Shown: piece after piece, positions 1,210 to 22,199 of the stretch | Numbering within the stretch: the first letter of the stretch is position 1 | Layout of the letters: each line of letters starts with the position of its first letter | Source: an uncultured archaeon | GTDB lineage: Archaea > Thermoplasmatota > Penumbrarchaeia > JASLWR01 | DNA length: 28,514 nt | Assembly (NCBI GenBank): GCA_964430885.1 | Contig: CAYSHM010000031.1 | Location: 1 to 28,514 of the forward strand | Direction of reading: 5' to 3' | Program-made: the position numbers and the translations under genes | The notes under the pieces: model-generated | Seen by the model: only the letters and a program-made list of their open reading frames with translations | The model's database searches: none | What the model was told of the DNA's origin: nothing

Positions 1210-4200
1210 CTACTCCTCATCGCTTAGACCGCTGATCATATCATCCAGCATACTGATCCCTTCTTCATCGTTCTCTCCTTCAGCCAACTCCTCTTCATCG
1301 TCTTTAATTTCCTCGTTCTCTTCGTAGTCGTCATCCGGCATCTCCGAAGCATCAGTCACATCAGTTTCAAATGATGAGTCAACCATCTCCTCCTCCTTTT
1401 CATCATTTGTAATCTCATCTTCAATCTCTGCGTCATCATGATCATCGGAGGAGGGTTCAGGTGTTGAAGGTTCAGGATCTGCAGGTGGCTCTTCAACAGC
1501 TTCATCCACATCAGGACTAGGTTCGGGCATTTCTTCAATTTCTTCTGGATGGCCAATCTCTTCTTCAGGTGCTAATGGTCCACTTTCATCCAATTCAGGA
1601 GGTAAATAATCCATTTCAGCTTCAGGTTCTTGAATCGGTGGTGATTGGATTGTATCATCCGGTGGAGCTATATGCTCTTCATGGTCTCCCTCCGGTTGAT
1701 CATTTTCCTCATCCAAAGGCCCATCTGACGGGGCTGTACTTGCCTCGGATTTTATAGGAGGTGGCGGTAAGGATGCCCGGCCTTTCACAGGTGCAGGGGC
1801 TTGGGGTAGGGCCTTGGTTCCATCTTTGTTCAAAGCACCGGAAGCAAGCTGAGGAGTTCCCTCCCTTTTTCTTAGCTGCATCTGGGCCTTATATTTCTTT
1901 AAAGCGGAATCCAAATCATTATTCACACTTTCGAAGGATATCCTTTCCAAACTAGATGCTGTAACCATGTAAATGTTTTCTTCAGGTGGCAGGAGTAATT
2001 CATTATCCTTTTCTTTTAGGATACTATCAAGTCTCCGGCTCTCTTCCTTTGATTTCTTACGCCTTTTCAAAATGAGAACCAGCAATATGATCAATGTTAA
2101 TAATAGAATAAGGCCGGCCAATATTAGGTATATATTCGATCCTAGTGATGAGACCCAATCTTCTTTCTCCGTTTCACTGCTCTTGAAGTTCAGTTCTTCA
2201 GAGGATACTCTAGATCCGTTCATGGATTCCGCCCACATTACAATATACATATCATCCTCTTCAACATCATTGGTCCAGAGACTATTCAGGGATAATGAGA
2301 ATTTAGTAACATTACCTGCGCTCAGGTTGAGAGTGGTTTTCTCCAAATAAATATAATCTGACAATGGGCCGGTTATTTTCAGCTTAATTTTAAGATCATC
2401 ATCACCGTAGTTGGCAGCATAGCCAACAATTGAATTTGGTGAATTTTCCCTGAACTCGTACAAATAATTTGGAACTTCGAATCCCACTACTATATTGAAA
2501 ACGGATATATGGATCCGGGGTGCTGGGTCTGCCAAGTCGGTTTTAACAATTCCATCATCTGCTCGGATCTCTATCCGGTAGGTTGTATTGCCGGGAAGGG
2601 ATTGCTTTATGGTATAAGGCGGATTCTTAACATGGGTCCAATCCAGAACCACCTGAGAATTGTCATCGTCAGAAACCAATCTAATTTCATATTCCAGAGG
2701 AACGGATGAGTACTTTGGGTCGGTATATTTGGCTGCGGTCCAGTTCAGGACTGGTTTAGTATCCGTTGTAAAGGTTGGACCATTATAGATCGGAAGCCTG
2801 ATGTTCGGTACCGGTATTATGGTCATCACATCATGGTATACATCGGAATACAAATCCCCGTCGTAGGATTTCAACTGTATGTAATAATCCCCTGGAATTA
2901 ATATGTCGTCTATGGTGAATACTGTTTCTTTTGCCAGATATGTCCATGGTAAGATATTTCCGTTATCAGATGCATTGCCAATTTGAATCCAATAGTAGAC
3001 ATCATCACCGTTCAGATCTTCTGCATCATAGAATTTTATTGTTGGGGTTGTATCGTATGTTGTTAGGTCATCAAGAGGGATATTGGGTTCAGGTAGTAAT
3101 TCTATTATATTCGGAGCAAAGGGTTTTATGTTCTTTGATGGATCTAAAACCTGAATCGTCTGTTCCCTGACCGGTGAATTTTCCTCCCCGTCTGAGGCCA
3201 TAACTTGTACATAAAATGTCCCATATGACAATCTGAAAGGCAGTTTGTAAAAATTATGTGTACTGGTTTCCGTCCATGAGAGAATCTCGTTGCCGTGCCA
3301 ATCGGAGCCTATCTGAATGAAATATGTCAGAACGGAGTTCAGATCCAGGTCTGAGCTATGTTCCCATGATATTACAGGTTGTCTTTCAATTGTATATATT
3401 GGCGATATTGGACCTGGCATGGAAGGCGGCTGGTTTCCCGTTAAAGATATTGCCATTAAAGACTCCTTTATTTCGGATCTGTATTCACCATCACTGCATC
3501 TTACTTGAATGTGATATTCACCTGTATCCAAGACTTTTTCGATCTGATATTCCGCTTCTGTTCCGGTGCTGTACCAGGCCAGGATGGTGTTGTCTCCAGA
3601 AGTGAGGCCGATCTGGATCTCGTAGGTAAGTTCATCATATGGGGTCATATCGTCCAGAGCGCCCCACCATGAGATCAGCGGCATTACCTGTGTTGTGAAC
3701 CGCGGATAAATATTGCTAGGTGCTGAGGGATGAGCGTTAAAGAATAATTCGAGCTCTTGATCCATTACAATTGTGTGGTTACCCAGCCAAATATCACCAA
3801 CGTTCACTATGATGCTGTATGATCCGGGTTCGAAGTCATTTGAGGGGTCAAAGGAAAAATGAAACCTGAAGGTTGAATTGTTCACATTTGTCAGGAACTG
3901 GAGCGTCTCATTTTCATTAAAAGATTCACTATTAAAAATTGTGGATGATCCTCCCTCTTCATCTTCAAACTGAATGAGTATTGTGAACTCCTCCACATCA
4001 TTTGTGTCAATATCCAGAAATTCAAAGGAGATATCACAATGCTCGTCGCCGTAAATGTTCATTAATGTTTTGGATATTGACTGTAGGGTTATCTCGGGGC
4101 TAGTGTTGTTGTAAATGAATAGGATGTCGGTATTTTCATCAAAATCTTGGAAATTGAAATCTGAATCACCATCGCTGATGCCGAAGAACAGATCATAGTA

Positions 4201-5877
4201 ACCATCAGGAAAACAACATTCTAAGTCAATTGATAATTCAACATGCCAATCTCCAGCTCGAACTTTGCTTATTGTCAGTCCTTCATAATCTGAGGATATG
4301 TTTTCCAATATTATCCAGGTTCTGTTCATCTCGTCCCGTATCTTTACAGTTATGGTAAAAACTGAAGGATCTATTGCATCGGGATCATTGATTTCGGTCT
4401 CAATTATAAAGGGTTTGTCCCCAGTAAGATTTATTGAATCGCATGAGCAGGTGATATCCATGATCATCGGTACATATTTTTTCACGATTTGGACGCTTTG
4501 GCTGATATTGAATAATGTGTTATCTATCTCCTGCTGTCCGGATTCATTTATTATTATCAATAAGGAATAATTCCCTTCATCCATCTGTTCGGGATTTGAA
4601 GGGGTCCATACATATTCCGCCATATAGTTCAGGTTCTGGCGAGATAATATGAGTTCAGTATCATTTTTCTTGTTATCGAGGACAGTAATATTCTGGTCCT
4701 CGCCGATAAGTAATAATGTGAAATAATAATCGTCAACGCTTTGTTCATCAATATCATGGAACGTAATGTTCAAATACAAACCTCGATGATCCATTACGTT
4801 GACTGGAGTTTTTTCAAAATGAATTGGCAGTCCTTCCAGATAGGGCGAATACGACAATACGGTCACATTTCCCTCATTGTCATCGAACCTGACATTTCCC
4901 GATACGCCAAATCTCCAGACTATTATTCCTATGTCCATGGGACCGAAAGGAATATTGTTATCAGGGGTCCAATTGTAATAGAAATTGAATCGATTGTCGT
5001 TGATCTTCCGAACTCTCAGGGTTGTAAACCCGCTTGTCTGGTTGTCCACTAATATATGTTCATCAGAATCCTCATCTCTAACGCTTATCGTAACTTTATA
5101 TTCATACGGATCATGGCCAGTACGGTCCAAAAAGTCACCTGTTATATTCGTGGAACCATTGTATCGATATATCTCATTGGGGGTTGCAGAGATGGAAATC
5201 TGATCTACCATAATAATCGGATCGGCCCTGATCTCGACATCATCAATTGCCCAATACTCCTGATTTGAAGAACTGGAGAACCTGAAACGTATCCTGAAGT
5301 TTGGATTCCAATCATATTGTGAAATATCATATTGATATCTATTGAACTGCTGGTGGTCTTTTAGCTGGTCCCCGTTCCATGATTTCAGAACTGTCCAATT
5401 AGTACCGCTGTTTCCCGATACCTCTAAAAAATATAGATCCTGAGCCTCGGTCTCAACAGTTCTCTGATAAACAATGATAGTTGCACCTGTAAATCCGATC
5501 AAATTGATATCCTGGGTAAGGGTTAGTTTTCTGTTATTGGCTTCAGCTGCACCATTTGCCCTATAGGTGCCGGTTCTTGGGTTCTGATTGGATACTGACC
5601 ATCCGTTTTCAGCATGCCATTTCCCCTCTAAAAATTCTCCATCTTCAAAACCTTCGAAGAACACTGCTTCATCCCTGGTACTCCTTCCATTTTTCACCAA
5701 AGAGGATTCATCATGTTCAATCACCGCTCCATTTTCACATTCCCGGCAGTCATTGTCCGACAAAGGGCCAACTTGGACATTCGAATATCTGGTTACCCAA
5801 AATCCTGGTATCAGTAAAATTGAGATCAGTATTATAATAGAGGCAATCTTTCTACATGTAGACATATTCATCACCAT
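1210..5877 (-). CDS. Giant type I membrane-anchored surface protein: signal peptide, jelly-roll domain, ~4 Ig-like repeats, ~4 FN3-like repeats, TM helix, Pro-rich then acidic cytoplasmic tail
   Basis: Hydrophobic N-terminus; FFEGFEDG...WAIDDVEI domain; repeated P-x-ISW...LTYxIQIG...GxYxIQVxxSDG units; TM IYLILAGLILLLTLIILLVLIL followed by KRRKK; many NxS/T sequons. True start may be the ATG at 5865 (GGTGA 5 nt upstream). Confidence 0.85.
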   Translation of the reverse strand: MVMNMSTCRKIASIIILISILLIPGFWVTRYSNVQVGPLSDNDCRECENGAVIEHDESSLVKNGRSTRDEAVFFEGFEDGEFLEGKWHAENGWSVSNQNPRTGTYRANGAAEANNRKLTLTQDINLIGFTGATIIVYQRTVETEAQDLYFLEVSGNSGTNWTVLKSWNGDQLKDHQQFNRYQYDISQYDWNPNFRIRFRFSSSSNQEYWAIDDVEIRADPIIMVDQISISATPNEIYRYNGSTNITGDFLDRTGHDPYEYKVTISVRDEDSDEHILVDNQTSGFTTLRVRKINDNRFNFYYNWTPDNNIPFGPMDIGIIVWRFGVSGNVRFDDNEGNVTVLSYSPYLEGLPIHFEKTPVNVMDHRGLYLNITFHDIDEQSVDDYYFTLLLIGEDQNITVLDNKKNDTELILSRQNLNYMAEYVWTPSNPEQMDEGNYSLLIIINESGQQEIDNTLFNISQSVQIVKKYVPMIMDITCSCDSINLTGDKPFIIETEINDPDAIDPSVFTITVKIRDEMNRTWIILENISSDYEGLTISKVRAGDWHVELSIDLECCFPDGYYDLFFGISDGDSDFNFQDFDENTDILFIYNNTSPEITLQSISKTLMNIYGDEHCDISFEFLDIDTNDVEEFTILIQFEDEEGGSSTIFNSESFNENETLQFLTNVNNSTFRFHFSFDPSNDFEPGSYSIIVNVGDIWLGNHTIVMDQELELFFNAHPSAPSNIYPRFTTQVMPLISWWGALDDMTPYDELTYEIQIGLTSGDNTILAWYSTGTEAEYQIEKVLDTGEYHIQVRCSDGEYRSEIKESLMAISLTGNQPPSMPGPISPIYTIERQPVISWEHSSDLDLNSVLTYFIQIGSDWHGNEILSWTETSTHNFYKLPFRLSYGTFYVQVMASDGEENSPVREQTIQVLDPSKNIKPFAPNIIELLPEPNIPLDDLTTYDTTPTIKFYDAEDLNGDDVYYWIQIGNASDNGNILPWTYLAKETVFTIDDILIPGDYYIQLKSYDGDLYSDVYHDVMTIIPVPNIRLPIYNGPTFTTDTKPVLNWTAAKYTDPKYSSVPLEYEIRLVSDDDNSQVVLDWTHVKNPPYTIKQSLPGNTTYRIEIRADDGIVKTDLADPAPRIHISVFNIVVGFEVPNYLYEFRENSPNSIVGYAANYGDDDLKIKLKITGPLSDYIYLEKTTLNLSAGNVTKFSLSLNSLWTNDVEEDDMYIVMWAESMNGSRVSSEELNFKSSETEKEDWVSSLGSNIYLILAGLILLLTLIILLVLILKRRKKSKEESRRLDSILKEKDNELLLPPEENIYMVTASSLERISFESVNNDLDSALKKYKAQMQLRKREGTPQLASGALNKDGTKALPQAPAPVKGRASLPPPPIKSEASTAPSDGPLDEENDQPEGDHEEHIAPPDDTIQSPPIQEPEAEMDYLPPELDESGPLAPEEEIGHPEEIEEMPEPSPDVDEAVEEPPADPEPSTPEPSSDDHDDAEIEDEITNDEKEEEMVDSSFETDVTDASEMPDDDYEENEEIKDDEEELAEGENDEEGISMLDDMISGLSDEE

Positions 5878-7692: not shown

Positions 7693-10449
7693 TCATTCCC
7701 CCTTTTCTTCAGCGGATACTTTCATTTTAGTCTTTGCTTCCACTCGTTCTTCTTTGTAATCCGGAACCTTTTTAAAAACGATCTCTTCCTTTCTCCGCCC
7801 CCTCATGATTAGGATTGCAACTATCACGATAATGATGAGCACAACTAGAGCCGAGATGAAAATGGACATGTTCCTGTTCTCTTTCAAAGATTCTCTTACT
7901 TTATCAATTGGGCTTTCCGGCTCTTCATCTGTGTCGGTGGTGGTTCCGCCTCCGTTATTATTAACTGCCCTAATGGTTATTTTGATGCCGTCGGATTCCA
8001 CCTCCGCTCCCGTATTATCCTTCACCTTCAAAACAGCTGTGAAAGTACCGGCTTTTGTATACTTATGTGTAGCTTCTGAGCTGGATTGCCATCCTGTGCT
8101 TTTCCCATCACCGAAAATGAAGTTGTATTCAGCTATGCTACCGTCAGGGTCCTGGGAGTCCACACCTGAAAAAGTGATGCTCTGACCTAAGCTTGCACTC
8201 TTGGATGAAACTGATAAAACAGAATCCGGAAGCAGGTTCACTTTCTCTTCGACCCTGATGTTGACAGTATCATCGTCCTTTTCTCCATAGGTATCAACTG
8301 CGGTGAAGGTAACAACGTGCAAACCCACTGAGAAGGTCATTCTAAGGTTCTGCTCTTCACCGAGTATCACACCTTTCTCGGTCCACTGCATGGATATCAC
8401 GTTATTCTCGTTATCCTCAACAGTGGCTGATAGGACCACTTCAGTTCCTTCTTCTACAACTTTATCCTTTCCTGTATCAACTCTAGGGGGTGTGTTCACT
8501 ATCCTTTCGGTGATTGTAACATTACAGTAATCTACATCTGAAAGGCCGCCGTCATCAGTCACTCTAAGTATGGATAGGTAGATTCCTGCTTCTTCATACT
8601 GATATTCGGTCTTTCCAGTATTGGTAGAGGTCCAGTCGTAGTTCCCATCTCCCTGGAAATCCCATTCGTATTTCATGATTGTTCCATCAGCATCAATACC
8701 TCTGCCTTCGAAGGTTACAACATCATCAAGATACATTTCTATATCTGGACCTGCATCGGCCCGGGGAGCAATATTGGTCAGTTTGATCCAAATTGGATTT
8801 GTTATGGCATAGAACTCATCATCGTCCAATACGGATTTGGCAGTCATTCGGATATACACTTCTTTATTAAGGGGCAGCTGAGAGGTGATATCCATGTCAT
8901 TGATATCTTCATCAAGCTCTATTATGGTTTCATTTTCTCCTATTTCCCCTATATGAAGCTGAATGACGGAGATCTCCCCAAATCGGTTCTGACATGATGT
9001 GTCGATCTCAAGTTCAAATTCCTTTCCTACAAGTGTATCTCCCTGATTGAGCCCTATGTCGAATTTGTCCTTTTCTTCATTTTCAACCGTGAATTTCAGG
9101 AGGGGACCGCTGGTTATGACTGTGTGTCCCTCCCTGAGGGAATCGATAACTCTTTTACCGGTAATTTCACCTGGAATATACTGCAGCAGCCTTACCTTTC
9201 CCATCCTGCCGAAATCACCGTATGCGCCGCTTCCCCCCATGGCAAAAGGTCTTTTTCCCTCAAGCAATAAGGAGGTCCATTTTTCCTGCAGTAGGAGATT
9301 GGTTCCGGAATATGGGTTCCCTCCTTTCCATATCTCCATTCCGGTAGCATTGGCAGGGAAATCACTCCATGGTGAGAACAGACTGTCGTCGGACAGATAA
9401 TCTGAGATATATGCCGCACCGTGATCATCTCCGACAGTGCTGAGAACATCGTCATAGGATATGGCGGAACCCTGCAGTTCAAAATCCCCGTAAATGCGAC
9501 CTGCTCCGTAGACCAGCATCTTGCCGTAATTGCCCAGGGAAGCAGGTCCCTGTGATGGATGTGTGCATATCACCTCTTCGGCTCCCAGCAGTAGAATATC
9601 ATCGTGATCATCATTCTGGCGGGATATCTTGCCCTCTCTTTCCTCGTATATTGATTCGCTGGAAAAAGCAGATGAATTATCGGTGATTCCTATCCAATCA
9701 AGTTTAATGGCCTCTCCAGGTCTTGATATGGCTTCGATAGGTGCTCCGAATTGCGTTCGTGTTTCGGTATAATTGGAATAGACGTGGGGGTCTGCAAAGT
9801 ACCAATCCTGAAAGCTGGACAATCCCTTGCTGACTATCTCTATACTTCTGGACCTTGTCTCATTGATAGCTGCGCGGCTTTCATCCCCTTCTGCATAGGG
9901 TTGATATCCGTCGGATTCACTGCCATAGTACATATCGGGAATCGGAGGTGTGCCAGGAATTTCCGGTGTGGACGGATCGGGGGTATCCGGATTTGATAGA
10001 AGGGTGAAAATTGCCACTGCTCTTGCGTTTCCAATATAGTCACTGCCGGATTGGAGGAAATCTGAATCGGTCAGCTCGATACTGTAGCTCCACGTTTCTT
10101 CCCTGATTATCAATGTTTCGAGCTCCGCGGTATCACCCATATCTCCAGCTTCCAACACCTTGTGGGCGAGTATTTCATCTTCATCGCTATATAGGGTTAT
10201 ATCAACCTGTTTAAGAGGCAAGGATCCTCCAGGAGCTTTGTCAGCATCATGAATAAGCAGCAGAAGGGGGATGTCTTCACCTTTTTTCACGCACCACGGT
10301 GCGTCCATTATTATTTCATATTTGTCCTGCCCTAATTCATTCAAATTTGAATAAGCTGTGGACAATCTGTGGAATGGACCTATTGTACAAAAGGATGATA
10401 GCAGAACAAAAGATGCAATGATCAACGTTCTCCTTGCGGTATTATTCAT
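7693..10449 (-). CDS. Secreted, C-terminally anchored protein with a degenerate PHP (CehA/McbA-like) domain and three PKD-like domains
   Basis: Likely start MNNTARR (ATG 10449, AAGGTGA SD) rather than 10563. Signal peptide; PHP-like motifs DPHVYS, LDWIGITDN, GAEE, MEIW, GGSGAY, AITNPIW; PKD motifs ADAGPD...D.DG.I.KYEWDFQGDG and FIFGDG...THKY..AGTF; TM followed by RGRRK. Confidence 0.82.
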   Translation of the reverse strand: MNNTARRTLIIASFVLLSSFCTIGPFHRLSTAYSNLNELGQDKYEIIMDAPWCVKKGEDIPLLLLIHDADKAPGGSLPLKQVDITLYSDEDEILAHKVLEAGDMGDTAELETLIIREETWSYSIELTDSDFLQSGSDYIGNARAVAIFTLLSNPDTPDPSTPEIPGTPPIPDMYYGSESDGYQPYAEGDESRAAINETRSRSIEIVSKGLSSFQDWYFADPHVYSNYTETRTQFGAPIEAISRPGEAIKLDWIGITDNSSAFSSESIYEEREGKISRQNDDHDDILLLGAEEVICTHPSQGPASLGNYGKMLVYGAGRIYGDFELQGSAISYDDVLSTVGDDHGAAYISDYLSDDSLFSPWSDFPANATGMEIWKGGNPYSGTNLLLQEKWTSLLLEGKRPFAMGGSGAYGDFGRMGKVRLLQYIPGEITGKRVIDSLREGHTVITSGPLLKFTVENEEKDKFDIGLNQGDTLVGKEFELEIDTSCQNRFGEISVIQLHIGEIGENETIIELDEDINDMDITSQLPLNKEVYIRMTAKSVLDDDEFYAITNPIWIKLTNIAPRADAGPDIEMYLDDVVTFEGRGIDADGTIMKYEWDFQGDGNYDWTSTNTGKTEYQYEEAGIYLSILRVTDDGGLSDVDYCNVTITERIVNTPPRVDTGKDKVVEEGTEVVLSATVEDNENNVISMQWTEKGVILGEEQNLRMTFSVGLHVVTFTAVDTYGEKDDDTVNIRVEEKVNLLPDSVLSVSSKSASLGQSITFSGVDSQDPDGSIAEYNFIFGDGKSTGWQSSSEATHKYTKAGTFTAVLKVKDNTGAEVESDGIKITIRAVNNNGGGTTTDTDEEPESPIDKVRESLKENRNMSIFISALVVLIIIVIVAILIMRGRRKEEIVFKKVPDYKEERVEAKTKMKVSAEEKGE

Positions 10450-10723
10450 TATTTCACCTTGATCTAATCTGTATTTTGTTTTGATTTGCTTCAAACTCCA
10501 GAATGGAATTATCATATCTGGTAGTTGCATATCCACTCTTAAATAAAAACCTATCTTCCTCATTTTTAATAACTTTATTCATCACATTCATGTAAAATTA
10601 TATTCTAAATCTGATAAAAATGAACAATGACTTCCTGCCTCACGGGAGAGCTATTGTACAAGGGACCTAAGTAGTTGATGAAAATTTACAATTCTAAATA
10701 TAATCTAGGAGGGTAATACAATA

Positions 10724-10737
10724 AAAAAATTATTAAA
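10724..10737 (+). promoter_or_regulatory. Putative BRE/TATA for the pyrophosphatase gene
   Basis: A-rich stretch followed by TTATTAAA about 60 nt upstream of ATG 10799; GAGGGTGA SD just before the start. Confidence 0.4.
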
Positions 10738-10798
10738 CAATACCTCTTATCCCAGGATAGACTTTCTAAAGTTATCTATATGTCATGAGGGTGAACAT

Positions 10799-13543
10799 AT
10801 GAAAAGCAATGCGGTTATAAAAATTACCGGCGCGTTTATACTTATATTGATTGTGTCCTTCGGGATATTAAACGGTCTATCGGAATTAGGGGCTGATGCC
10901 CAAACAGCAGATAGTAAATCGCCATATTATGGTGCTTCATGCAATCTCAAAATAGTATCCTTCGAGGATGAGGACGGAGTTGTATATGAGAATACATTGG
11001 AAGAGAACGAAACCCCTGAGGACTGGCAGAAGGACAATGGGATCTCCACCTCTATAACCAATCTTGCAAAGTCGGTCATATTTTGGATTCAGGTCAGTTC
11101 CGAAGTGACCGATAGGACCATCAGCACGAGCCCTGGCAGTTCTGGTAATCCCTACAACATTACAATTCCTGACGATTATGTACGGAGACAGAAATATTCA
11201 TTGGATATTGAAGTTGAGGACGGTGATGATTGGAATATAACTTTCAGTGTGACAAATGATGTGCGGCTTTCAGATGATGATATCTCTCTGTATCTGACCG
11301 ATGACGGTTTTAAAAGAGCCAATGAGATGGATCGACTTTCTTTTTGGCTTGCACCCGGGGAATATGCGAATATCAAGGTGGAGGTCAAGGGCCTATCAAG
11401 TCTTTCTCCAGGTGATGAGGTAACAATAACAGTTGTACCAAGCGAAGATACCCCTGGCTGTCATACTCCTACACACATGACCGTAAAGGTAGAAAGCGAT
11501 GACGATTTTTCTGTTATTCATATACTGGGGATCATTGCAGCCTTCATTGGCCTGATATTTGCTTATATATTGTATTTAAACATTTCAAAATCGGACGAAG
11601 GTAATGATAAGGTCAAGGAAATATCAAAAAGCATTAATGAAGGCGCAATGGCCTTCCTGAACAAGGAATACAGGATCTTGGTTATATTCTCATTTGTGGT
11701 AGTGGTAGTTCTTCTCGTTGCTGCGTATATAGCGGAATCAATGACCTATTGGACCCCTGTAACATTTGTTGTAGGGGCTCTGTTCTCTGCAATAGCGGGA
11801 AACATTGGTATGCGAATTGCCACATCTTCCAACGGTAGAACTGCAACAGCTGTTGAGAAGGATCTTAAGAAAGGATTGCAGATCGCCTTTTCCAGCGGAG
11901 CGGTCATGGGCCTTTCAGTTGTTAGCTTAGGCCTATTGGGTGTGTCTGGATTTTATTTCATATTCAAAGATCCAAACATTCTTTTCGGTTTCGGTTTCGG
12001 AGCTTCATCAATAGCCCTTTTCGCTAGGGTAGGCGGGGGGATATATACCAAGAGCGCTGATGTGGGAGCCGATCTTGTTGGAAAGGTGGAGAAGGGCATC
12101 CCGGAGGATGACCCCCGGAATCCCGCGGTGATAGCTGACAATGTGGGTGACAATGTGGGAGATGTAGCAGGGATGGGAGCAGATCTATTTGAATCCTATG
12201 TTGATTCCATTATAGCCGCCATGATACTTGGAGTTGTAGGTGTTGGAACCCTGAATGCGTCCAAAGATCTCGGCGGCTTCATGGGCAAAGCAGTTCTTCT
12301 TCCATTGATAATTGCAGGACTGGGAATTATTTCTGCTATAATAGGAATATTTGTGATCAATAACAGCAAAGAGGTTAAGTCTTTACATGGCTTACTGAAC
12401 AAGGGCCTATTGACCGCAGCCTTGTTTCAGGGTATTACATCCTTAGCTGTTGTGGTTTTCTGGCTGGGAATGGATTACTTTGAGATCTGGGGTGCTATGG
12501 TTGCAGGTCTTGTAAGCGGTTTGGTTATAGGGTATATCACCGAATATTATACCTCGGATGAGTTCAAACCTACAAAAGGAATAGCTGAATCTTCAAAATC
12601 AGGTGCAGCCCCTAATATTATCGAGGGATTGTCCGTAGGTATGATCAGTACTATTGTCCCTGTAGTAATGGTATGTATTACATTGATATTCTCTTTCTGG
12701 ATGGCAGGTCTTTACGGCATAGCGATTTCTGCAGTTGGAATGCTTTCTACTTTAGGTATAACTCTAGCAACCGACTCTTACGGACCAGTAGCGGATAATG
12801 CTGCAGGAATTGCCGAGATGGCAGGAATGGGGAAAAAGGTAAGGGAGAGGGCAGAGAAACTGGATGCCGTCGGAAATACTACTGCCGCTATTGGAAAGGG
12901 TTTTGCCATAGGATCTGCAGCACTTACTGCATTGGCCCTGTTTTCCACATATACTCAAACAACTCAGCTTACTTTCGGAAGTTTATCCCTGATGGACCCA
13001 TATGTCATGGTAGGTGTTTTCATCGGTGTACTTTTGGTCTTTGTTTTTTCAGCTCTCACAATGGCAGCCGTTGGTAAAGCTGCAATGGAGATGGTGGAAG
13101 AGGTTAGACGTCAGTTCAAGGAGATTAAAGGATTAATGCAGGGCAAGCAGAAACCCGAGTACAAGAAGTGTGTAATGATTGCTACCGGCGGTGCTTTGAG
13201 ACAGATGATACTGCCCTCGGTTCTGGCAGTTGCTACACCTGTTGTAGTGGGCCTAGTCCTGGGACCTGAAGCCCTAGGCGGCCTTTTAGGCGGAGCATTG
13301 GTGGCAGGTTTCCTAATGGCAATTATGATGGCCAATTCAGGCGGAGCCTGGGATAATGCAAAGAAATATATTGAAGCCGGGAATCTAGGCGGCAAGGGTT
13401 CAGAAGCCCATAAGGCAGCCGTTGTGGGTGACACAGTAGGAGATCCGTTCAAGGATACTTCAGGTCCCTCTTTGAATATCCTGATAAAGTTGATGTCTAT
13501 TGTATCGTTGGTATTTGCCCCCCTCTTCCTGATACTGCATTAG
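10799..13543 (+). CDS. hppA: K+-dependent, probably Na+-translocating membrane pyrophosphatase with a 236-aa N-terminal extension
   Basis: [68 protein letters not shown] (Ala marks K+ dependence), [33 protein letters not shown] has Glu at the TM6 position typical of Na+-PPases. Confidence 0.95.
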
Positions 13544-13625: not shown

Positions 13626-14393
13626 ATGAGAGGTTACAAATACACTGTATCTCATAGAGATATCATGGAGGAGAACCTGCGTTTTTATACCCTAATATCA
13701 AAGAAGAAGGGAAGCAAAACCATCTCTTTGGATTTTTCCAGAAAGATGCTTGTCATCGGTAACGATGATAGATCATCAAAGAAAAATGGAATTCAAATAC
13801 CAACGCAGTCCATTAAAGATATCTATATTCACAAAGGCAAATCCCTTCCCTTGGGTGTTTTTCATATGGGGGTTTTTCTGGTTCTTCTAGTGGGCACGTC
13901 TCTCTCGCTGGTGGATGTGATATCTGTTCTCGCGTTATTGAAAAAATGGTTGTTCGTTATATTGATCCCTTGTTCAGTTATTGGTTTGACATTAGTGATA
14001 TCATATTTTCTGATAAGAAAGAAGAGCTTGGTTATTGATATCAATGGACGTGATAATATAGAACTGATTGGGGATGTGGCTCAAATGAAGAAGTTACGTT
14101 TTGACATTAATGTTCTAGAAAAGGGCCGGTTATTAGAAGAAAGAAAAATAAGATTTGAAGTGACACCCGTAATCGGCACTTCTACTAATAATGAGAAAGA
14201 GAAAATAAGGGGAATATCAGGAAGCAGAAAGTCAGCAGAAGAGGGCCCTGGTAAAGATGTATTAACTTGTCCTCACTGTGGCAGTTCGGATCTTTATTAC
14301 GAAGCAGGATTGACCACTGGCTATAAATATCACTGTGTGGATTGTGATTATATCGGCCCTTTTGTAATTAGTAAAAAACTAAAACAAATATGA
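13626..14393 (+). CDS. Hypothetical membrane protein with a 2-TM hairpin and a C-terminal zinc ribbon
   Basis: Two hydrophobic segments at about aa 75-128; C-terminal CPHC-x16-CVDC. Start could be the second Met. Confidence 0.75.
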   Translation: MRGYKYTVSHRDIMEENLRFYTLISKKKGSKTISLDFSRKMLVIGNDDRSSKKNGIQIPTQSIKDIYIHKGKSLPLGVFHMGVFLVLLVGTSLSLVDVISVLALLKKWLFVILIPCSVIGLTLVISYFLIRKKSLVIDINGRDNIELIGDVAQMKKLRFDINVLEKGRLLEERKIRFEVTPVIGTSTNNEKEKIRGISGSRKSAEEGPGKDVLTCPHCGSSDLYYEAGLTTGYKYHCVDCDYIGPFVISKKLKQI

Positions 14394-14699: not shown

Positions 14700-17600
14700 C
14701 TATAACCCTTCCAATTCCTTTTCGATATCTTCAATAGAGGGCATCTCAATTCCATCCAGATCGATATCATCGTCTTCCTCTATCTCATCATCATCCACAG
14801 GTTCCCCTTCACTCTCCATTTCTTCTTCTGGGGCTGAGGTGTCATCCGTTCCGTCACCGAGTATGTCCGATACCATGCTGTCAAGATCTTCAATTCCAAT
14901 ATCCAGGTCTAGATTTGCTAGTTCGTCTTCATCTATATCGATATCTTCGATATCCTCTTCCTCCACTTCTTCTTCTTCTTCTTCCATCCCCATAGATGGT
15001 TCTTCATAGCCTTCATCTATCTCCTTTCCACCATCGTCTTCGGAATCGTCCGTATCGGCTGTATCGTCCTTGTCCACGACTTCTTCTTCATCAATTTCTT
15101 CCTCAACAACCGCAGCTTCCCCCACCTCGCTATCATCCTCATCTTCTTCTTCCTTCTCCTCTTTGTCAGTGTCCTCTTCAGCGTCTTCCTTATCGTCACC
15201 CTCTTCCATCTTTTCTTCTTCTTTATCCAATTCATCCTCTTCTTCCTCCTTCTTTCTGAAGAAAAGCCAGAACACGATAAAAGCAAGGATCAGCATGACG
15301 ATAATTAGAATTATCAGTGTAATCAGGACAAGATTATTGTTCTCGTTCTCTATTCTATCCGGATTGACTTCTTGATTACTCCAGAGAACATAGGGTCCTA
15401 ACACATTTTCTCCCTTTGAAACCCATATGGTTGATGTATTGCTTTCATATCCATCCATTGAAATTTCAAGAATGTAAACTCCCTCAGGTAGGTCATTAAA
15501 GGTATAGGTCTTTAGAACCTCGTCATATTCGGGATTATCAAACCTCGTCTTCTCGGTTTTGGGGTTCTTCAATACCACAATTACATCTTCCAGATAATTA
15601 TCGGCTGAATCCTTTACAGTGATTGAGAGCTTTCCGGTAATCGGGCTTTTTACCAAGCTGATATTGGTCCAATTAACGGATGCACCTTGGCTGATGTTAG
15701 ATCTGATTTCTTTAGTGTTATACCCGGCAGCCTTGAATCGGACCCTGTACTTACCAGCTTCCAGGGGGTAATAGAATGATCCTTTGTCATCGGTCTGCAC
15801 GGTCTTGAAATCCTCGAAAACAATGATTGTTGTTTCATTGAAATCTTCATACTGTGCATAGTTATCCTTCAATGTGGAGTTATTTCCAATATATACATAG
15901 GTCATATTTGTGATCATGATATTGGCATATGGAATTGGAGTTCCCGCTTCATCTGTAACATTACCGGCCAATACACCCCAAGTCGGAGGAGGCATATATT
16001 CGGCTAATATCGCATATACATAGACTGTTTCACCTATTTCCACCGTAACATCATCGGACCATTCCAGATAAGTGATCCCTTCAAAAGTGTTCCCGTATAC
16101 GGTCATCTTGTATTTGCCTGGAGGCACATTTTCAAAATATTCCTTTCCATTGCTGCCAGTATAACCAGTGGGTAAATTTCCCACATCGATGAAGAATCCT
16201 TTTAGAGGATCATCAGTAGCATTCTTGACCTGGAAAACAATCCGTCCTGTTGTTATAGGTTTCCCCATGGTGGTGAACTCAAAGGAAATATTGGAAATCC
16301 TGTTGCCTGCCAGGTCAGTGAGATCATAATCTATAATTACCTGATACTCCTCGTTATACTCCAGACCATTTATGAAAAGCAGATAGAGAATTGACCTTCT
16401 CTGGCTTATATTGTTTTCAATCAGGAAGTCAAAGGAAATGCGGTTCTCGTTTGAATCGATGATGGATATTCCTGATTCAATGGTACCGTTGTTGATGATC
16501 TCGGAGAATATTACGGTGTAGTTGATGTCTATATCCATATCTAGTTCACGGTCATCGGGATAGGTTTCTAATATTGTGGGCTTGATATTATCCAAAACTA
16601 TAAGCGGGGCAAATTGGCCGGTTGGATTCGGATCTGAAATATTTATTCCAACCATTCCATTCCCCCGGTCCAGTAGAGTTTCAGTTATTTGACCCCAATA
16701 ATTGTTGTTTATGCCTCTGAAATAAATAACAAGATCGTCGTCATACGTTCCAGGCGGGAAGAAGCCGGGATCAAATTCAAACCAAACTTCTGTCCAAATG
16801 GCCCTGCCTTCACCTGTTAAATTCAACTGCAGCATTATTTCAATAAAGACCATCCCGTCTGATATGTTTTCCCAAGCTCTGGTATTCTCAGTATCAACAT
16901 CCAGTGTGAATTGACCTGAACCTCCAAACAGGCTCCTGATATGAACTGGTCCATGATCAATTACCTGAATTGTGGGCAGGTATACGTTCAAATCGAAATA
17001 TGCGGATGTTGTGGTATAGGGATCCGATACATTGAGATAGATCCGGTGATTACCAATTGAAAGCTGTGCGGTGTCCAGCATAATGACATTCGTGTTCATA
17101 TCCAATGTTTGATCGAGCTGGATGGGGCCTGAAAGATTTGAAACGAACTCGAACTCAAGTAACTGGTAACTTTCTTCGGGATCTATAAAGTCAACATCAA
17201 TGTATATTTCATCCTGCCAAATTACAAATGATGGGTAGTTGTTGATTGATACCGCTGGGGGATGGTTGTCCAATTCCATGTAGAAATCCACTCTTCGGTT
17301 TTCATTGGCTACAAGTATGATATTTTTATAAGTAGATTTGAATCGCGCCTTGGAAACTGATATGTTCACCCTCCCACCGGATATCACTGGGAAATTGAAG
17401 AACCCGCCGGGATTGGTTTGAGTATTGACCTGAGCGCCGCTATTGAATCTTATATCAAGAGATGCATTTGATATTGCAGTCCCGTCCAAATCTGAGTAAA
17501 CATAACCGAAAACGGCAGGAAGTGCATCCAGGTTTAATCCATACACGGTCATGGTTATATTGTTGCTTGACATGTCCATATCCATATATAGGGGCACATC

Positions 17601-20600
17601 ACTCCTCATGGTGATAGTATATTCCGCCCCCTGAAAATGAAGGGTCATGAATGAGAAAGTGATTGTTTTTGTTTCGTTTCGATCCAAACCTATAATGGTC
17701 TCGTATGAATTGAGATATGATGTTTCATTTTCTAATGTATATAGAACAGTGATGTTCAATGGAATATTTTCCCAATCATAGGTTCCTTCATTATGAAGGT
17801 CGATCTCAATCACGATCTCGTCACCCTGTCGATAGGTTTGGCGGTCCTCTGGATTTAGGGGTTCAATTACGATATCAGTATAATTCCATATGAGCACAGC
17901 ACCGAAAGAATGATTGTTTTCCTCTATGTAATCAATTTCCAATGAAGTGTAAAAGTGTACTACATAAGTTCCGTTAAATTCTGGGTTGAAGGACCAGCTA
18001 AATGTCAGTTCATCATCAGGAAGCAGTACGGAATTTAAAACAATAGTATCTTCCAGTTGATATTGCTGATTATCAATATTCTCGACTACAATATCAATCA
18101 CAATACTACTTTCTTTGAGATTCCCATCGTTCCCGACGGTAACATTGAACTCTGTGTTTTCACCGGAATGATATGGATACTTTGCTTTTATGGAGAAATC
18201 ATCCAGATAAAAACCAGCACCGTCTCCCTGAGCGCTGTGGTCTGAGATCAATACAAATCTGAACTGAAGGTCACCGAAATAATCTTTCAATTCCACAACT
18301 CGTCGGGTCCAGGTCTTTTCGGCATAGTTGAATACCTTAAGGACATGCCACGAATTGCCTCCGTCATCCGAGGTTTGGAATTCTACCTTATCATTACCTG
18401 CACTGCCCAGATCGAACCAGGTATAGAATATGGCTTTTGAACCCCATGTGATATCCTGAATAACGGGTGATTTCAGCCAGCAATTTGAGTCCGGTAGATA
18501 AGGGCCCATTATGTTGGTTCCCCAGACATTGTTGCCTGAAACAGCAGCTCCCGGTCCGAGGAACGGAAAATCTCGATCCCAATTATCATTGACTCCGCCA
18601 TGGGCCCACTGGCCGCCTAATCGTTCAAAATCGTCATAATAGACCTGGAATTCTTTTTGTTGGGATACCATGTCAACATCGATTATCGACAGATCATGAT
18701 AATCCAGTATACTGATCTTCTTGGTCACTACATTGTTGCTATGGGTTTCGTCATTTTCCAGAAGGGATTTGAAAATCACAAGATATTCTTTTTCCTGGGT
18801 AAAATTATGAGTATGTTGAATGGTATTCTGTTCCTGGTATGAAATGTTGAAACTGATATTATCATTATAGGAAAAGTCAATGCTCTCCGATACAAATCTA
18901 ACATCATCAAGGTATACACCAGGGTAATCTGAATCTATCCAATCGGATAACACATAGAAACCTATCTGAATTTCCTGCCCGACGTATTGAGAGAGGTTTA
19001 TCGTTTCAAGAATCCATCCCCCTGAAGTACCTGAATACCTCTGACCTATCTCAGTCCATGTAGCGTTGGCAGGATCATCAAGTGTGTGATTGTTAACCAC
19101 TACAACACAGTAGTCGGAGTAGTCCTGCATTGAATGATTGATCGCAAAGGATATATTCGCATGATAGCTATTATCCAGATCAATTGTTTGGTATAGTATT
19201 TCTCTCTGGTTTGATAAATAATTACCTGAGTTCTCTTTTCCAAACCACCAGCTTCCATTTCCTCCGAAGCTGTCAGGATGTGAACTGGTTTCATTAATAA
19301 GGTGCCATAATCCTTCTCCGAGCAGGCTCGTCGTTTCCCAATTTCCCATGCCATTTTCCATATTATCCCAGAGCAGATCCTGATAATTGCCGCTTGCCGA
19401 TCCTATTTTAAGGTTTATATCAAATGACTCGTTCCTTTCCCCTAGATTCTTAACCAGAGCTGAAACGGGGTGTTCACCTGTAGATATATGATTCTCTACC
19501 ATTATTCCCTCTGTTTGAGGGTTTTCAAGAGCGATATCATGCATATCTCTGATTGTTAGAATGTCGATTAGATAGTTATTTGCCGGTTGGTCATCATTTA
19601 TATTATCCACAGAGCAGTTCAGGGTATATTGCCCTTCAAGTTCAGGAGTAATGAGACTGAAGAGTACATTCTGTGATCCGCCCCGAGTAAATAATTGATT
19701 GAATCCCTTGGTTTCTGAGTGCACAGTTGAACCCGTAGAATTTATCAGCTTCAATGAAACGTTGTAATTGGTTATGTTCATGTTTCCCAAATTCTCAGCA
19801 TTGACCGTTATGTTCATAGGTAAGATGGATTTTATCGGACTTAAGGGTTCCAACTCAATACCTGCGCATTCCAGATCATAATAATTCCAGACCATTATGT
19901 TATCAGATGTATAGTTATTATCTGTTCCCTGGTTCTCGTCCTGTTCATGGACTGATACATTTATAGTATAGTTATGGGGTTCAGCAATTCCGGTGTTCCA
20001 ACCAGAAAAATCAACAAATGCTGAACTATCATGGGATAGGGTTTTCTCTTGAATATTTGAGAACACACTTTGGCTGCTTTCATCAGTTATGTTGATGGAA
20101 ACATTGAAGGTTTTTTCTACATTTCCAAGATTAGTAACCGTTGCATTCACAGTTACATCTTGTTGGCTATTAATGATCCTCTTTCCGCTTATCGGATCGA
20201 TTATGACATAATCAGCTCCAATATCATTCAGATCCACTGTAATATCAACGACGTTATCAACAGAAAAATTCATTTTTGTGAAATTATTAGTTGGAACCTC
20301 ATCCAGATTCCATGAATGAGAAACGTTAAATGTGAAAACCCCTTCGTGGGGCGGTATCCAATCCGGTTCGAACAATAGATTGTCAGTATCTCCAGGTACC
20401 GAGTTTATGGTTTGATCGGTGTCGTTATAATAATATCCCAGTCCATCCTTGATCTGAAGGTGTACGGGTACTGCGGCTGCGAACATATTCCCCACATTGC
20501 TGAGAACCCCCGTTATCTCCACATTTTCTCCCACCCCAATGGGTTCGTTCATGTTCAGTAGAATATCATCCACTGCCAGATCGAATAAATTTCTCACTTC

Positions 20601-22199
20601 TACTGTATAGTTGATAAAATCATTACTGGATATCATATCACCCTGGTAAAGGATGGAAACATTGATGTGATATACCCCGTTGGTGTTAATATTCCATGAT
20701 GGGGAATCGAAATCAACATAAACTGATCCTCCAGATTGGATCACCACGTTCTGAATCTCAGAAGAATAAACATTGTTGCTTCCCTCATCTGTTATATTGC
20801 ATAATGCCGTGAGGAATGCGGGATTAATACCGTAGTTCTTGATTGTCACATTGACAATATGGTTCCCTTTGGGCAGCACGCTGCCGGGCAAAGGGGAATT
20901 GATTGAATTTATACCTGCATCGTTATTGACTGCTTTTCTCTCATGTACATACAATACCGTACCTGTGGGATCTTCGGAACATCCAATGATTATTTCATCC
21001 TTGGAATCGAAATCGAATTCACCTGTGGCTAAGGTAAGAGGAGTTTGATCGGGTGCCCCAATGAAATCATTGACCAGAACTCTATTGTTATAGCTGTCGA
21101 ATGAAAGCAGGTCATTACCTTTGAACTCAAGATCATAGACCGAGTTATTATTGCTGGTAGCTAGATAGATATCTGTTTTACCATCACTGTCAATATCGCC
21201 TATTTCCATATCCCATATTTCCAACTCGCCATAAGAGGTGAGGAAAGTGCTAGTTAAATTTACAGCATCATCAGGTGTTGTCAATATTTTCAGATTCCCT
21301 TTATTGTCACACAGGAAAACTTCGGCTTTGCCGTCCTTGTTCAGATCTGCAGCTTCCATATCCAGAGGTAGAACTGCCATATCTTCCGAGAGCTGCAAAG
21401 GCTCGTTGAGTACGAATGAATACTCGTTTGCTCTTTCAGATTCGAAAACATATATTGAACTATAATTGAATTCTCCTACGATAAGGTCCTCATTTTCATT
21501 GAAATCAAGTAAACCATCCAGATCACCCATTGTCATGGAATGGATAGAGTGATCGGTTTCATAGACGAACTCTTCTATGAACTGATAGGTGAAATCAAAA
21601 TGATAGATAATAATTCCTTTCTCCCAACCAACTATCAATTCTCTTATTCCGTCCATATCCATATCGTCGATCAGGATGTCATAGATGGGTTCGCCCAGAT
21701 TGGTCGAATTGGCCAAGGTGTAATTGTCATTGCCTACAACTCCATCATTTTCAAATATCACCAGGTTTCCGTCTCCGCAAGCAAGAATTATATCCTGTCT
21801 TCCATCAAAATTGACGTCACCCACATCAATGTCCAGTATGGAAGCAGACTGAGAATAGTTCGAGTATTTTTCAGTAAATCTATTGTCAATACCCGTGGAC
21901 TCGTAGATGTAGAACCAACCTTCAGAATCGCCAACGATAAATTCGCCAATACCATCTCCATCTAGATCCTGCTGATGGGTTGTGGTAGCAACACATCGGG
22001 GTTCACTTTTTATACTGCTGTTAGTGTCTGTTTTATTCGTCCATATCCTGGTAACGATATTATCTGCGTCAACATCACCCGTGGGAGACCAGGACCCATC
22101 AATTGGTACTATGAACAATCCAACAGGCGCTATTGTGGAGAAAACCATCATCAAGATTATCACTATGGATGCTTTGGTAGTATAAGACCTACTGTGCAT
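14700..22199 (-). CDS. 2499-aa type I membrane surface protein: 7 FG-GAP-like repeats, CARDB/Ig repeats, two jelly-roll domains, carboxypeptidase-regulatory-like and Big_5-like domains, TM helix, highly acidic tail
   Basis: Signal peptide; DLDGDG, DVNFDG, DMDMDG, DLDG, DLNKDG, DIDSDG and EFDFDS Ca-binding loops; repeated D...V.N.G...D....NN CARDB units; TM LVLITLIILIIVMLILAFIVFWLFF-RKK; ~185-aa D/E-rich tail; AAGGTGA SD. Confidence 0.88.
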   Translation of the reverse strand: MHSRSYTTKASIVIILMMVFSTIAPVGLFIVPIDGSWSPTGDVDADNIVTRIWTNKTDTNSSIKSEPRCVATTTHQQDLDGDGIGEFIVGDSEGWFYIYESTGIDNRFTEKYSNYSQSASILDIDVGDVNFDGRQDIILACGDGNLVIFENDGVVGNDNYTLANSTNLGEPIYDILIDDMDMDGIRELIVGWEKGIIIYHFDFTYQFIEEFVYETDHSIHSMTMGDLDGLLDFNENEDLIVGEFNYSSIYVFESERANEYSFVLNEPLQLSEDMAVLPLDMEAADLNKDGKAEVFLCDNKGNLKILTTPDDAVNLTSTFLTSYGELEIWDMEIGDIDSDGKTDIYLATSNNNSVYDLEFKGNDLLSFDSYNNRVLVNDFIGAPDQTPLTLATGEFDFDSKDEIIIGCSEDPTGTVLYVHERKAVNNDAGINSINSPLPGSVLPKGNHIVNVTIKNYGINPAFLTALCNITDEGSNNVYSSEIQNVVIQSGGSVYVDFDSPSWNINTNGVYHINVSILYQGDMISSNDFINYTVEVRNLFDLAVDDILLNMNEPIGVGENVEITGVLSNVGNMFAAAVPVHLQIKDGLGYYYNDTDQTINSVPGDTDNLLFEPDWIPPHEGVFTFNVSHSWNLDEVPTNNFTKMNFSVDNVVDITVDLNDIGADYVIIDPISGKRIINSQQDVTVNATVTNLGNVEKTFNVSINITDESSQSVFSNIQEKTLSHDSSAFVDFSGWNTGIAEPHNYTINVSVHEQDENQGTDNNYTSDNIMVWNYYDLECAGIELEPLSPIKSILPMNITVNAENLGNMNITNYNVSLKLINSTGSTVHSETKGFNQLFTRGGSQNVLFSLITPELEGQYTLNCSVDNINDDQPANNYLIDILTIRDMHDIALENPQTEGIMVENHISTGEHPVSALVKNLGERNESFDINLKIGSASGNYQDLLWDNMENGMGNWETTSLLGEGLWHLINETSSHPDSFGGNGSWWFGKENSGNYLSNQREILYQTIDLDNSYHANISFAINHSMQDYSDYCVVVVNNHTLDDPANATWTEIGQRYSGTSGGWILETINLSQYVGQEIQIGFYVLSDWIDSDYPGVYLDDVRFVSESIDFSYNDNISFNISYQEQNTIQHTHNFTQEKEYLVIFKSLLENDETHSNNVVTKKISILDYHDLSIIDVDMVSQQKEFQVYYDDFERLGGQWAHGGVNDNWDRDFPFLGPGAAVSGNNVWGTNIMGPYLPDSNCWLKSPVIQDITWGSKAIFYTWFDLGSAGNDKVEFQTSDDGGNSWHVLKVFNYAEKTWTRRVVELKDYFGDLQFRFVLISDHSAQGDGAGFYLDDFSIKAKYPYHSGENTEFNVTVGNDGNLKESSIVIDIVVENIDNQQYQLEDTIVLNSVLLPDDELTFSWSFNPEFNGTYVVHFYTSLEIDYIEENNHSFGAVLIWNYTDIVIEPLNPEDRQTYRQGDEIVIEIDLHNEGTYDWENIPLNITVLYTLENETSYLNSYETIIGLDRNETKTITFSFMTLHFQGAEYTITMRSDVPLYMDMDMSSNNITMTVYGLNLDALPAVFGYVYSDLDGTAISNASLDIRFNSGAQVNTQTNPGGFFNFPVISGGRVNISVSKARFKSTYKNIILVANENRRVDFYMELDNHPPAVSINNYPSFVIWQDEIYIDVDFIDPEESYQLLEFEFVSNLSGPIQLDQTLDMNTNVIMLDTAQLSIGNHRIYLNVSDPYTTTSAYFDLNVYLPTIQVIDHGPVHIRSLFGGSGQFTLDVDTENTRAWENISDGMVFIEIMLQLNLTGEGRAIWTEVWFEFDPGFFPPGTYDDDLVIYFRGINNNYWGQITETLLDRGNGMVGINISDPNPTGQFAPLIVLDNIKPTILETYPDDRELDMDIDINYTVIFSEIINNGTIESGISIIDSNENRISFDFLIENNISQRRSILYLLFINGLEYNEEYQVIIDYDLTDLAGNRISNISFEFTTMGKPITTGRIVFQVKNATDDPLKGFFIDVGNLPTGYTGSNGKEYFENVPPGKYKMTVYGNTFEGITYLEWSDDVTVEIGETVYVYAILAEYMPPPTWGVLAGNVTDEAGTPIPYANIMITNMTYVYIGNNSTLKDNYAQYEDFNETTIIVFEDFKTVQTDDKGSFYYPLEAGKYRVRFKAAGYNTKEIRSNISQGASVNWTNISLVKSPITGKLSITVKDSADNYLEDVIVVLKNPKTEKTRFDNPEYDEVLKTYTFNDLPEGVYILEISMDGYESNTSTIWVSKGENVLGPYVLWSNQEVNPDRIENENNNLVLITLIILIIVMLILAFIVFWLFFRKKEEEEDELDKEEEKMEEGDDKEDAEEDTDKEEKEEEDEDDSEVGEAAVVEEEIDEEEVVDKDDTADTDDSEDDGGKEIDEGYEEPSMGMEEEEEEVEEEDIEDIDIDEDELANLDLDIGIEDLDSMVSDILGDGTDDTSAPEEEMESEGEPVDDDEIEEDDDIDLDGIEMPSIEDIEKELEGL

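Follow-up and report, generated by a model that had tools for sequence, protein, structure and literature searches.

Membrane-bound pyrophosphatases (M-PPases) are textbook minimal primary pumps, made of one polypeptide without accessory domains. A gene in the 28,514-nucleotide stretch of DNA analyzed here (contig CAYSHM010000031.1 of assembly GCA_964430885.1, hereafter the window), which comes from an uncultured archaeon of the phylum Thermoplasmatota, raises the question of whether such a pump can carry a folded domain on its outer face and, if so, what the domain might do there. The genome of the window is a 3.13-Mb assembly in 44 contigs, and its named relatives are metagenome-assembled genomes of Thermoplasmatota. 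We conclude that the gene joins, genuinely and on one polypeptide, a putative export signal, an ectodomain of ~200 amino acids (aa) that is modelled as immunoglobulin-like (Ig-like) and a full M-PPase, and that here a whole class adds a domain on the exit side of the pump. For the role of this domain we make a tentative proposal, that of a passive module facing the cell envelope.

Organization of the gene and its product

A single unbroken open reading frame (ORF), at positions 10799-13543 of the forward strand, encodes a protein of 914 aa in which a signal-peptide-like start is followed by an acidic, all-beta region of ~200 aa and, from residue ~240, by a complete M-PPase core. Residues 1-236 (10799-11506) stand before the first transmembrane (TM) helix of the pump, in frame and behind a Shine-Dalgarno-like (SD-like) motif (Table 1), as the original prediction, made from the letters of the window alone, had stated. 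The particulars on which that prediction relied (A32-D33-A34 before Q35, Cys48 and Cys221, two N-I-T sequons and Met227) were all recovered from the translation, together with one N-E-T, and its picture of an acidic, beta-rich, Ig-like region agrees with the composition (40 Asp and Glu versus 15 Lys and Arg) and with an all-beta AlphaFold2 (AF2) model.

In the putative signal, K2 and K8 are accompanied by a hydrophobic stretch at residues ~9-27 and by the A32-D33-A34 motif, and residues 3-27 form a helix in the full-length AF2 model. The same succession of basic, hydrophobic and small residues opens all 28 distinct extensions that were aligned. The hydrophobic stretch, which is long enough to span the membrane, could belong to a Sec signal that is cut off or could persist as an additional helix (TM0, which would be the 17th). 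The N-terminus of the 16-helix M-PPase core faces outward, so a folded domain placed in front of it must be exported, which would explain the signal; the outward ectodomain originally proposed is compatible with this topology.

Evidence that the extension is translated

The class of the window is represented by 37 genomes in our collection, 33 of which contain an M-PPase at E <= 1e-50. Thirty in-class loci were examined, and two of them were cut by contig ends, leaving 28 with a complete N-terminus. In 27 of these 28 loci, 154-240 residues precede the first TM helix (TM1), each time with a signal-like start, and no stop codon separates the two parts. The extended layout is the rule across this Thermoplasmatota class.

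The ectodomain is under purifying selection. In close pairs, its ratio of nonsynonymous to synonymous substitution rates (dN/dS) was 0.06-0.32, versus 0.02-0.05 for the core; both values could be computed in 7 of 10 pairs, the other three being saturated at silent sites. The signal-like segment at the far start is conserved, and this start has an SD-like motif in 26 of 26 orthologues, for the most part GGAGG at a distance of seven bases. A start codon near TM1 (-25 to +8 codons) is present in 17 of the 26; the remaining nine have none, so that an internal start is impossible there. In the window itself, the candidate internal start at Met227 has no SD-like motif. Finally, contigs from two runs of one marine metagenome study cross positions 10500-12000 with 0 differences and thus bridge the junction near 11500, where a check of read continuity had been suggested; the runs are possibly the source of this DNA, hence not independent of it, and add little alone.

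Neither separate genes with a missed stop nor a start at Met227, the two faults that the original prediction had allowed for, was found. The shared layout, the purifying selection and the bridging contigs together exclude a missed stop or a chimeric assembly, and the upstream SD-like motifs together with the nine orthologues lacking an internal start codon exclude an internal start as a general rule. Some observations nevertheless pull the other way. An SD-like motif stands before a TM1-near start codon in 10 of the 26 orthologues, short starts were chosen by NCBI annotators, and the pump of one in-class genome (G007) is of the ordinary kind; extended pumps may also have a second, short isoform. 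On balance we regard the fusion, as read from these sequences, as almost certainly genuine and translated, and the opposite view, in which the mature product starts at or near TM1 or the extension is a separate or mis-assembled gene, as scarcely credible.

Annotation in public records

The short NCBI records deserve comment, as five relatives have NCBI-named sodium-translocating pyrophosphatases that start at TM1. These five records, of 665-696 aa, proved to be exact C-terminal suffixes of ORFs of 839-874 aa (loci L005, L007, L008, L010/L021 and L012/L020). Several of them begin inside TM1, which speaks against their being the true starts, and gene calls from non-NCBI sources retain the long form. 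The annotation thus hides both signal and ectodomain: homology-guided start selection trims the domain, and surveys of public records miss the architecture.

A literature search found no description of an N-terminal ectodomain on an M-PPase, although the supplement of PMC11210485 may list other long enzymes. In the excerpted text of that 2024 review, a UniProt length search is reported in which an 810-aa Paucibacter enzyme exceeds the earlier known M-PPases. The claim that the architecture is new stands in so far as no description was found; it does not stand as something peculiar to this gene, because the layout is class-wide and recurs in the tree.

Pump core and transported ion

The core matched PF03030 (H_PPase) over residues 250-906 (E 4.8e-273; 908 bits versus a cutoff of 29.7; profile positions 2-645 of 645) and aligned to the solved pumps of Vigna radiata (E 1e-173) and Thermotoga maritima (E 1e-157). 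Residues 237-913 are helical throughout in the full-length model, with a predicted local distance difference test score (pLDDT) of 80-93. The catalytic Asp/Lys motifs, which we take to be those of M-PPases in general and which include DxxGDPxKD, are present in the translation, are the same as in V. radiata and are invariant in 26 relatives.

Two further family models, NCBIfam NF001960 (sodium-translocating pyrophosphatase equivalog; residues 240-912, 950.4 bits versus a cutoff of 546) and TIGR01104 (V_PPase; 836.7 versus 651.9), were both passed, so that these models do not separate Na+ from H+ pumps. By alignment and the numbering of PMC5150537, A696 corresponds to 12.46, D462, E465 and S466 to 6.50, 6.53 and 6.54, and N893 and K897 to 16.46 and 16.50; all six residues are invariant across the 26 extended pumps (alignment A2). 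In the excerpts of PMC5150537 used here, Ala at 12.46 marks K+-dependent M-PPases, the 6.50/6.53/6.54 set is the gate of Na+ and Na+/H+ pumps and of some H+ pumps too, and E6.53 occurs in some K+-dependent H+ pumps as well. Judged by these residues, the core is a complete K+-dependent M-PPase with a Na+-type (E6.53) gate. Na+ is the probable pumped ion, and its assignment can be no firmer because some K+-dependent H+ pumps share E6.53.

Distribution and origin of extended pumps

The search for M-PPases with similar N-terminal extensions, which the original prediction had put forward, was productive within the class, as described above, and elsewhere in the tree. Outside the class and in the same phylum, an M-PPase was found at E <= 1e-100 in 329 of 401 sampled genomes, with open frames of ~645-780 aa among the matches listed. 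Six longer out-of-class frames were fetched. Those of G098 and G063 were rejected as extensions, since they are GC-rich read-through that lacks stops and contains neither a signal nor a domain, and those of G137, G149 and G088 are without an extension. The sixth, from another class of the phylum (L044, on contig C8 of G040), has its own signal and a CARDB-like domain of ~140 aa, with a core that is 46% identical. In a collection of 5.8 billion proteins with 7972 homologues, 21 of the best 120 were longer than 800 aa, and in 20 of those 21, TM1 is preceded by over 100 residues that open with a signal-like segment.

In a FastTree phylogeny of 151 core sequences, 43 long and 3 short-annotated forms make up one clade of 46 leaves (support 1.0); two of the three short-annotated members (P0020 and P0043) are identical to the C-terminal end of a long ORF. 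Outside this main extended clade are L038 (genome G014), L044 and P0045. L044 groups among short forms, and its extension is likely an independent gain, while the extension of P0045 has no detectable kinship to the main family (hhalign probability 0.4%). A quick IQ-TREE tree of 42 rows contains at least three changes between the extended and the short state, be they gains or losses, and an approximately unbiased (AU) test under LG+G4 rejects monophyly of the 18 extended rows (p 5e-50), for a group that was defined after inspection of the tree. From the FastTree clade, the state changes and the AU test, we infer one old acquisition that defines the class-wide clade and at least two further gains or domain replacements elsewhere.

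Fold and conservation of the ectodomain

The AF2 model of the ectodomain, based on 28 sequences, has 11 strands and one short helix (pLDDT 69.8; predicted template modelling score 0.68). The structural comparison suggested for it with Foldseek, supplemented by VIA-align, returned generic Ig-like matches: pilins, cohesins, TTHA1873 and the Ig-like N-domains of GH123 and PAD enzymes. TM-scores were 0.3-0.5 and Z reached 9.4, no single family was prominent, and the comparison tool itself cautions that a Z of 7-8 is frequent by chance. Across the 28 ectodomains the mean column identity is 28%, with N83 and W111 as the only nearly invariant residues, and the net charge is negative in every one of them (-9 to -30). 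The ectodomain of the window is ~60 residues longer than in most relatives. As modelled, it is a generic Ig-like beta-sandwich without conserved candidate binding or catalytic residues.

Sequence searches gave few relatives. None of the 28 ectodomains reached any Pfam cutoff, the best match being NPCBM_assoc at E 0.0089 (3 of 28 sequences), and residues 1-236 had weak sub-cutoff matches to Arch_flagellin, to NPCBM_assoc and to the membrane-proximal part of a haloarchaeal surface-layer (S-layer) glycoprotein model. A HMMER search of 1.84 billion representatives with the ectodomain gave three matches at E <= 1e-3, namely one extended pump, a DUF11-repeat protein (2.7e-9) and a doubtful repeat protein, and a word-indexed search with residues 1-240 returned the query itself as the sole match. 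The ectodomain profile A1, run against longer proteins, found at least four matches, every one an extended pump, which is a weak test; against the window's own genome it found itself only.

The membrane-proximal domains of surface proteins from another genome (G006) matched the window ectodomain at E 2.4e-7 per genome. Two of these surface proteins (L049 and L050) end in two CARDB/NEW3-like sandwiches, a TM anchor and a cytoplasmic tail rich in Pro, Glu and Gln. Between that end and the window ectodomain plus TM1, identity is 25-31%. An Atlas look-alike for CARDB/NEW3/DUF11-type likeness scored 0.76, which is a lead only.

The ectodomain had also been proposed to be glycosylated and possibly closed by a disulfide. 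As general traits, both proposals fail. The two Cys occur together in 1 of the 28 class ectodomains and in 3 of the 7 closest relatives, and 19 sequons were observed over the 28 ectodomains versus 28.7 expected; these counts rule out a class-wide disulfide-closed or glycosylated ectodomain. Among the 7 closest relatives, 6 keep the W-N-I-[ST] sequon.

Two members of the wider family stand apart. P0005, an extended M-PPase of 868 aa, forms a long branch within the subfamily of the window and keeps the ectodomain and both Cys; its catalytic motifs seem degenerate, the Lys of GGGIYTK being substituted and the DNVGDNVGD stretch changed, and it may be an inactive paralogue that retains the ectodomain. 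P0013 (924 aa) has an added ectodomain insert directly after the signal, with at least four Cys (CPxC...C..PGC) and a zinc-ribbon-like look.

Possible roles of the ectodomain

In the mechanism that we propose, an N-terminal Sec-type signal, or an uncleaved helix, would take the acidic sandwich of ~200 aa across the membrane, where it would remain tied through a few residues to TM1 of the K+-dependent M-PPase. Because the ectodomain ends only a few residues before TM1, it would lie near the outer face of the pump, on the exit side; excerpts of PMC5150537 place the hydrolytic centre in the cytoplasm and the exit channel on the periplasmic or lumenal side. There it would act as a passive spacer or as a tether into the S-layer or pseudoperiplasm, outside the catalytic cycle and not as a sensor, similar to the OmpA-like domain that certain bacterial M-PPases carry at the C-terminus and that presumably faces the wall.

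Several lines are in keeping with such an envelope-facing module. The ectodomain evolves fast yet under constraint, and what it preserves is limited to an acidic surface and the residues that pack its core. It is similar to the sandwiches next to the membrane in archaeal surface proteins, pumps with an extension are found on more than one branch of the core tree, and bacteria have the OmpA-like analogue. A passive structural role is further suggested by the fold matches (pilins, cohesins and Ig-like N-domains of enzymes) and by two other transporters of the genome with comparable segments, described below. A sensor, or a part in catalysis, would accord with these observations less well than a passive module. 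What weighs against this proposal is that no S-layer protein was identified in this analysis, that the confidence of the ectodomain model is moderate, and that hhalign gave a probability of 21.9% for profile A1 versus the CARDB-like domains of the G006 surface proteins. Moreover, in the full-length AF2 model the ectodomain drops to pLDDT 22-64, with no confident docking on the core, and that model does not give its placement relative to the exit channel. We therefore treat the spacer or tether role as plausible while holding it a little more likely to be wrong than right; blended with the far firmer architecture, the explanation as a whole comes out about evenly balanced.

One alternative is a modulating effect on the pump: the ectodomain could form an acidic cap that attracts or buffers Na+ or H+, could bind divalent cations, or could gate the channel in response to outside conditions. 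The uniformly negative charge and the short link to TM1, which would keep the ectodomain close to the outer face, would fit such a modulator. However, a conserved acidic cluster or ligand-type residues are missing from the aligned ectodomains, which evolve 3-10 times faster than the core, have no detectable relationship between different branches and are not confidently docked in the model. Acidic surfaces are, besides, common in exported proteins of marine archaea. We consider modulation unlikely.

The ectodomain might instead aid assembly, stabilizing the homodimer or an array, or helping together with the signal to fix the N-out orientation. Ig-like domains often pair, signal and domain are kept throughout the whole clade, and M-PPases are obligate homodimers according to excerpts of PMC5150537. 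The same excerpts, however, put the dimer interface at TMH10 and TMH13, and ordinary M-PPases dimerize and insert without any ectodomain. We hold this role to be less likely still.

A surface interaction site, used for adhesion to partners or particles or varied by the host as a target of viruses, has in its favor that the ectodomain outpaces the core in evolution, that pilins and adhesin domains are among the best fold matches, and that giant surface proteins abound in the genome, the window alone encoding four. Nonetheless, dN/dS lies far under 1, so that diversifying selection is not apparent at the resolution of these pairs, the fold matches are of a generic kind for which chance often gives a Z of 7-8, and a housekeeping pump would be an unlikely carrier for an adhesin. 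We find this possibility quite improbable.

Whatever its role, the passive envelope-facing module that we prefer included, the ectodomain offers a natural handle on whether the outer face of the pump matters and on how archaeal membrane proteins sit under the S-layer.

Other transporters of the genome

A crude scan of the window's genome found 99 polytopic ORFs, and in 28 of them a hydrophobic segment at the N-terminus is separated from the next helix by 130 residues or more. Eight of those 28 were run against Pfam, and two fell into families normally built in this way (MMPL/RND and FtsX/MacB). One lactate-permease-family protein of 964 aa (L053; genome G000, contig C5:105405-108296, reverse strand) has a signal-like start and an acidic, beta-rich segment of ~140 aa before the first core helix, with a V-x-I-x-N...W pattern as in the pump; the three remaining genomes of the family (G001, G002 and G003) all retain its long form. 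An MFS_1 transporter of 583 aa (L052; G000, contig C24:15048-16796, forward strand) carries, behind its first hydrophobic helix, an insert of ~140 aa that is likewise acidic and beta-rich. When the window's genome was searched with the A1 profile, the outer segments of L053 and L052 had no detectable homology to the pump ectodomain. The two proteins suggest that outer beta-rich segments are something the lineage tends to place on its transporters, rather than a feature confined to the pump.

It is a doubtful generalization, though one worth stating, that the class routinely adds Ig-like ectodomains to its pumps and transporters, coupling them to the surface layer or organizing the pseudoperiplasm. 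If it were true, the state changes seen among extended M-PPases would point to convergence under selection rather than to an accident of history.

The genome also encodes a polytopic protein of 902 aa (L054; G000, contig C32:19345-22050, reverse strand) with a large outer N-terminal region, which matches Big_1 and CarboxypepD_reg weakly, and a membrane part for which no family match was obtained.

Other features of the window

The pump gene lies among four giant predicted surface proteins (956-2499 aa within 28.5 kb), the domains of which include PKD, FG-GAP, CarboxypepD_reg, Big_5 and Reelin-subrepeat-like types. Directly downstream of the pump is an ORF of 255 aa with no Pfam match, hydrophobic segments in mid-protein and a C-terminal CxxC...CxxC pair that gives it a zinc-ribbon look. 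Positions are collected in Table 1.

Table 1. Positions, within the window, of the parts of the extended pump gene and of neighboring reading frames
Feature	Position	Strand	Remark
SD-like motif GAGGGTGA	10787-10794	+	4 nucleotides before the ATG at 10799
Signal-peptide-like N-terminus, residues 1-34	10799..10900	+	K-containing n-region, ~19-residue hydrophobic stretch, A-D-A before Q
Acidic beta-sandwich ectodomain, residues 35-236	10901..11506	+	All-beta in the AF2 model
Cys48	10940..10942	+	By position, potential disulfide with Cys221, first strand to last strand
W145-N146-I147-T148	11231..11242	+	Trp nearly invariant in alignments A1 and A2; sequon kept among closest relatives
Cys221	11459..11461	+	Possible partner of Cys48
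Met227, candidate internal start	11477..11479	+	No SD-like motif upstream
M-PPase core, residues 237-914	11507..13540	+	TM1 at about residues 237-263
Ion-gate residues D462 (6.50), E465 (6.53), S466 (6.54)	12182..12196	+	From the V. radiata alignment (D294/G297/E301)
A696 (A12.46), marker of K+-dependent M-PPases	12884..12886	+	Aligned to V. radiata A537
Stop codon	13541..13543	+	Read from the ORF
255-aa ORF	13626-14393	+	
Predicted giant surface-protein ORFs	1210-5877 (-), 7693-10563 (-), 14700-22199 (-), 24194-27757 (+)		TM anchor at the end of the 956-aa protein

Comparison with known systems

The closest characterized counterparts are the Na+-PPase of T. maritima (4av3) and the H+-PPase of V. 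radiata (4a01), with which the window pump has the full-length core, the catalytic motifs, A12.46 and K16.50 in common. It differs from both in its 236 additional N-terminal residues, placed outside, and in its length of 914 aa, compared with the 600-800 aa and 15-17 helices given for the family in an excerpt of PMC9405524. The gate residues D6.50, E6.53 and S6.54 are the same as in the T. maritima Na+ pump, whereas position 16.46 is Asn, as in V. radiata, and not Asp.

An extra hydrophobic segment before the 16-helix core is a feature that the window pump would share with the H+-PPase of Streptomyces coelicolor. That enzyme reportedly has 17 TM helices, as Mimura and colleagues are said to have found in 2004, with an extra helix and no folded ectodomain before TM1.

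The ectodomain itself is comparable to the CARDB, NEW3 (NPCBM_assoc) and DUF11 domains, sharing with them, as modelled, an all-beta sandwich of 100-150 residues and, in sequence, the V-x-V-x-N...DW...G-x-x-x-V pattern. It differs from them in that its family lies below the Pfam cutoffs, at a profile-profile probability of 21.9%.

In architecture, the nearest parallel is the Paucibacter-type M-PPase of 810 aa, as described in excerpts of PMC11210485. It also has one extra extracytoplasmic domain at an outward terminus, with a role that is probably envelope-related. That domain is C-terminal and OmpA-like, belongs to peptidoglycan-bearing bacteria and needs no signal, whereas the domain of the window pump is N-terminal, archaeal and, as modelled, Ig-like.

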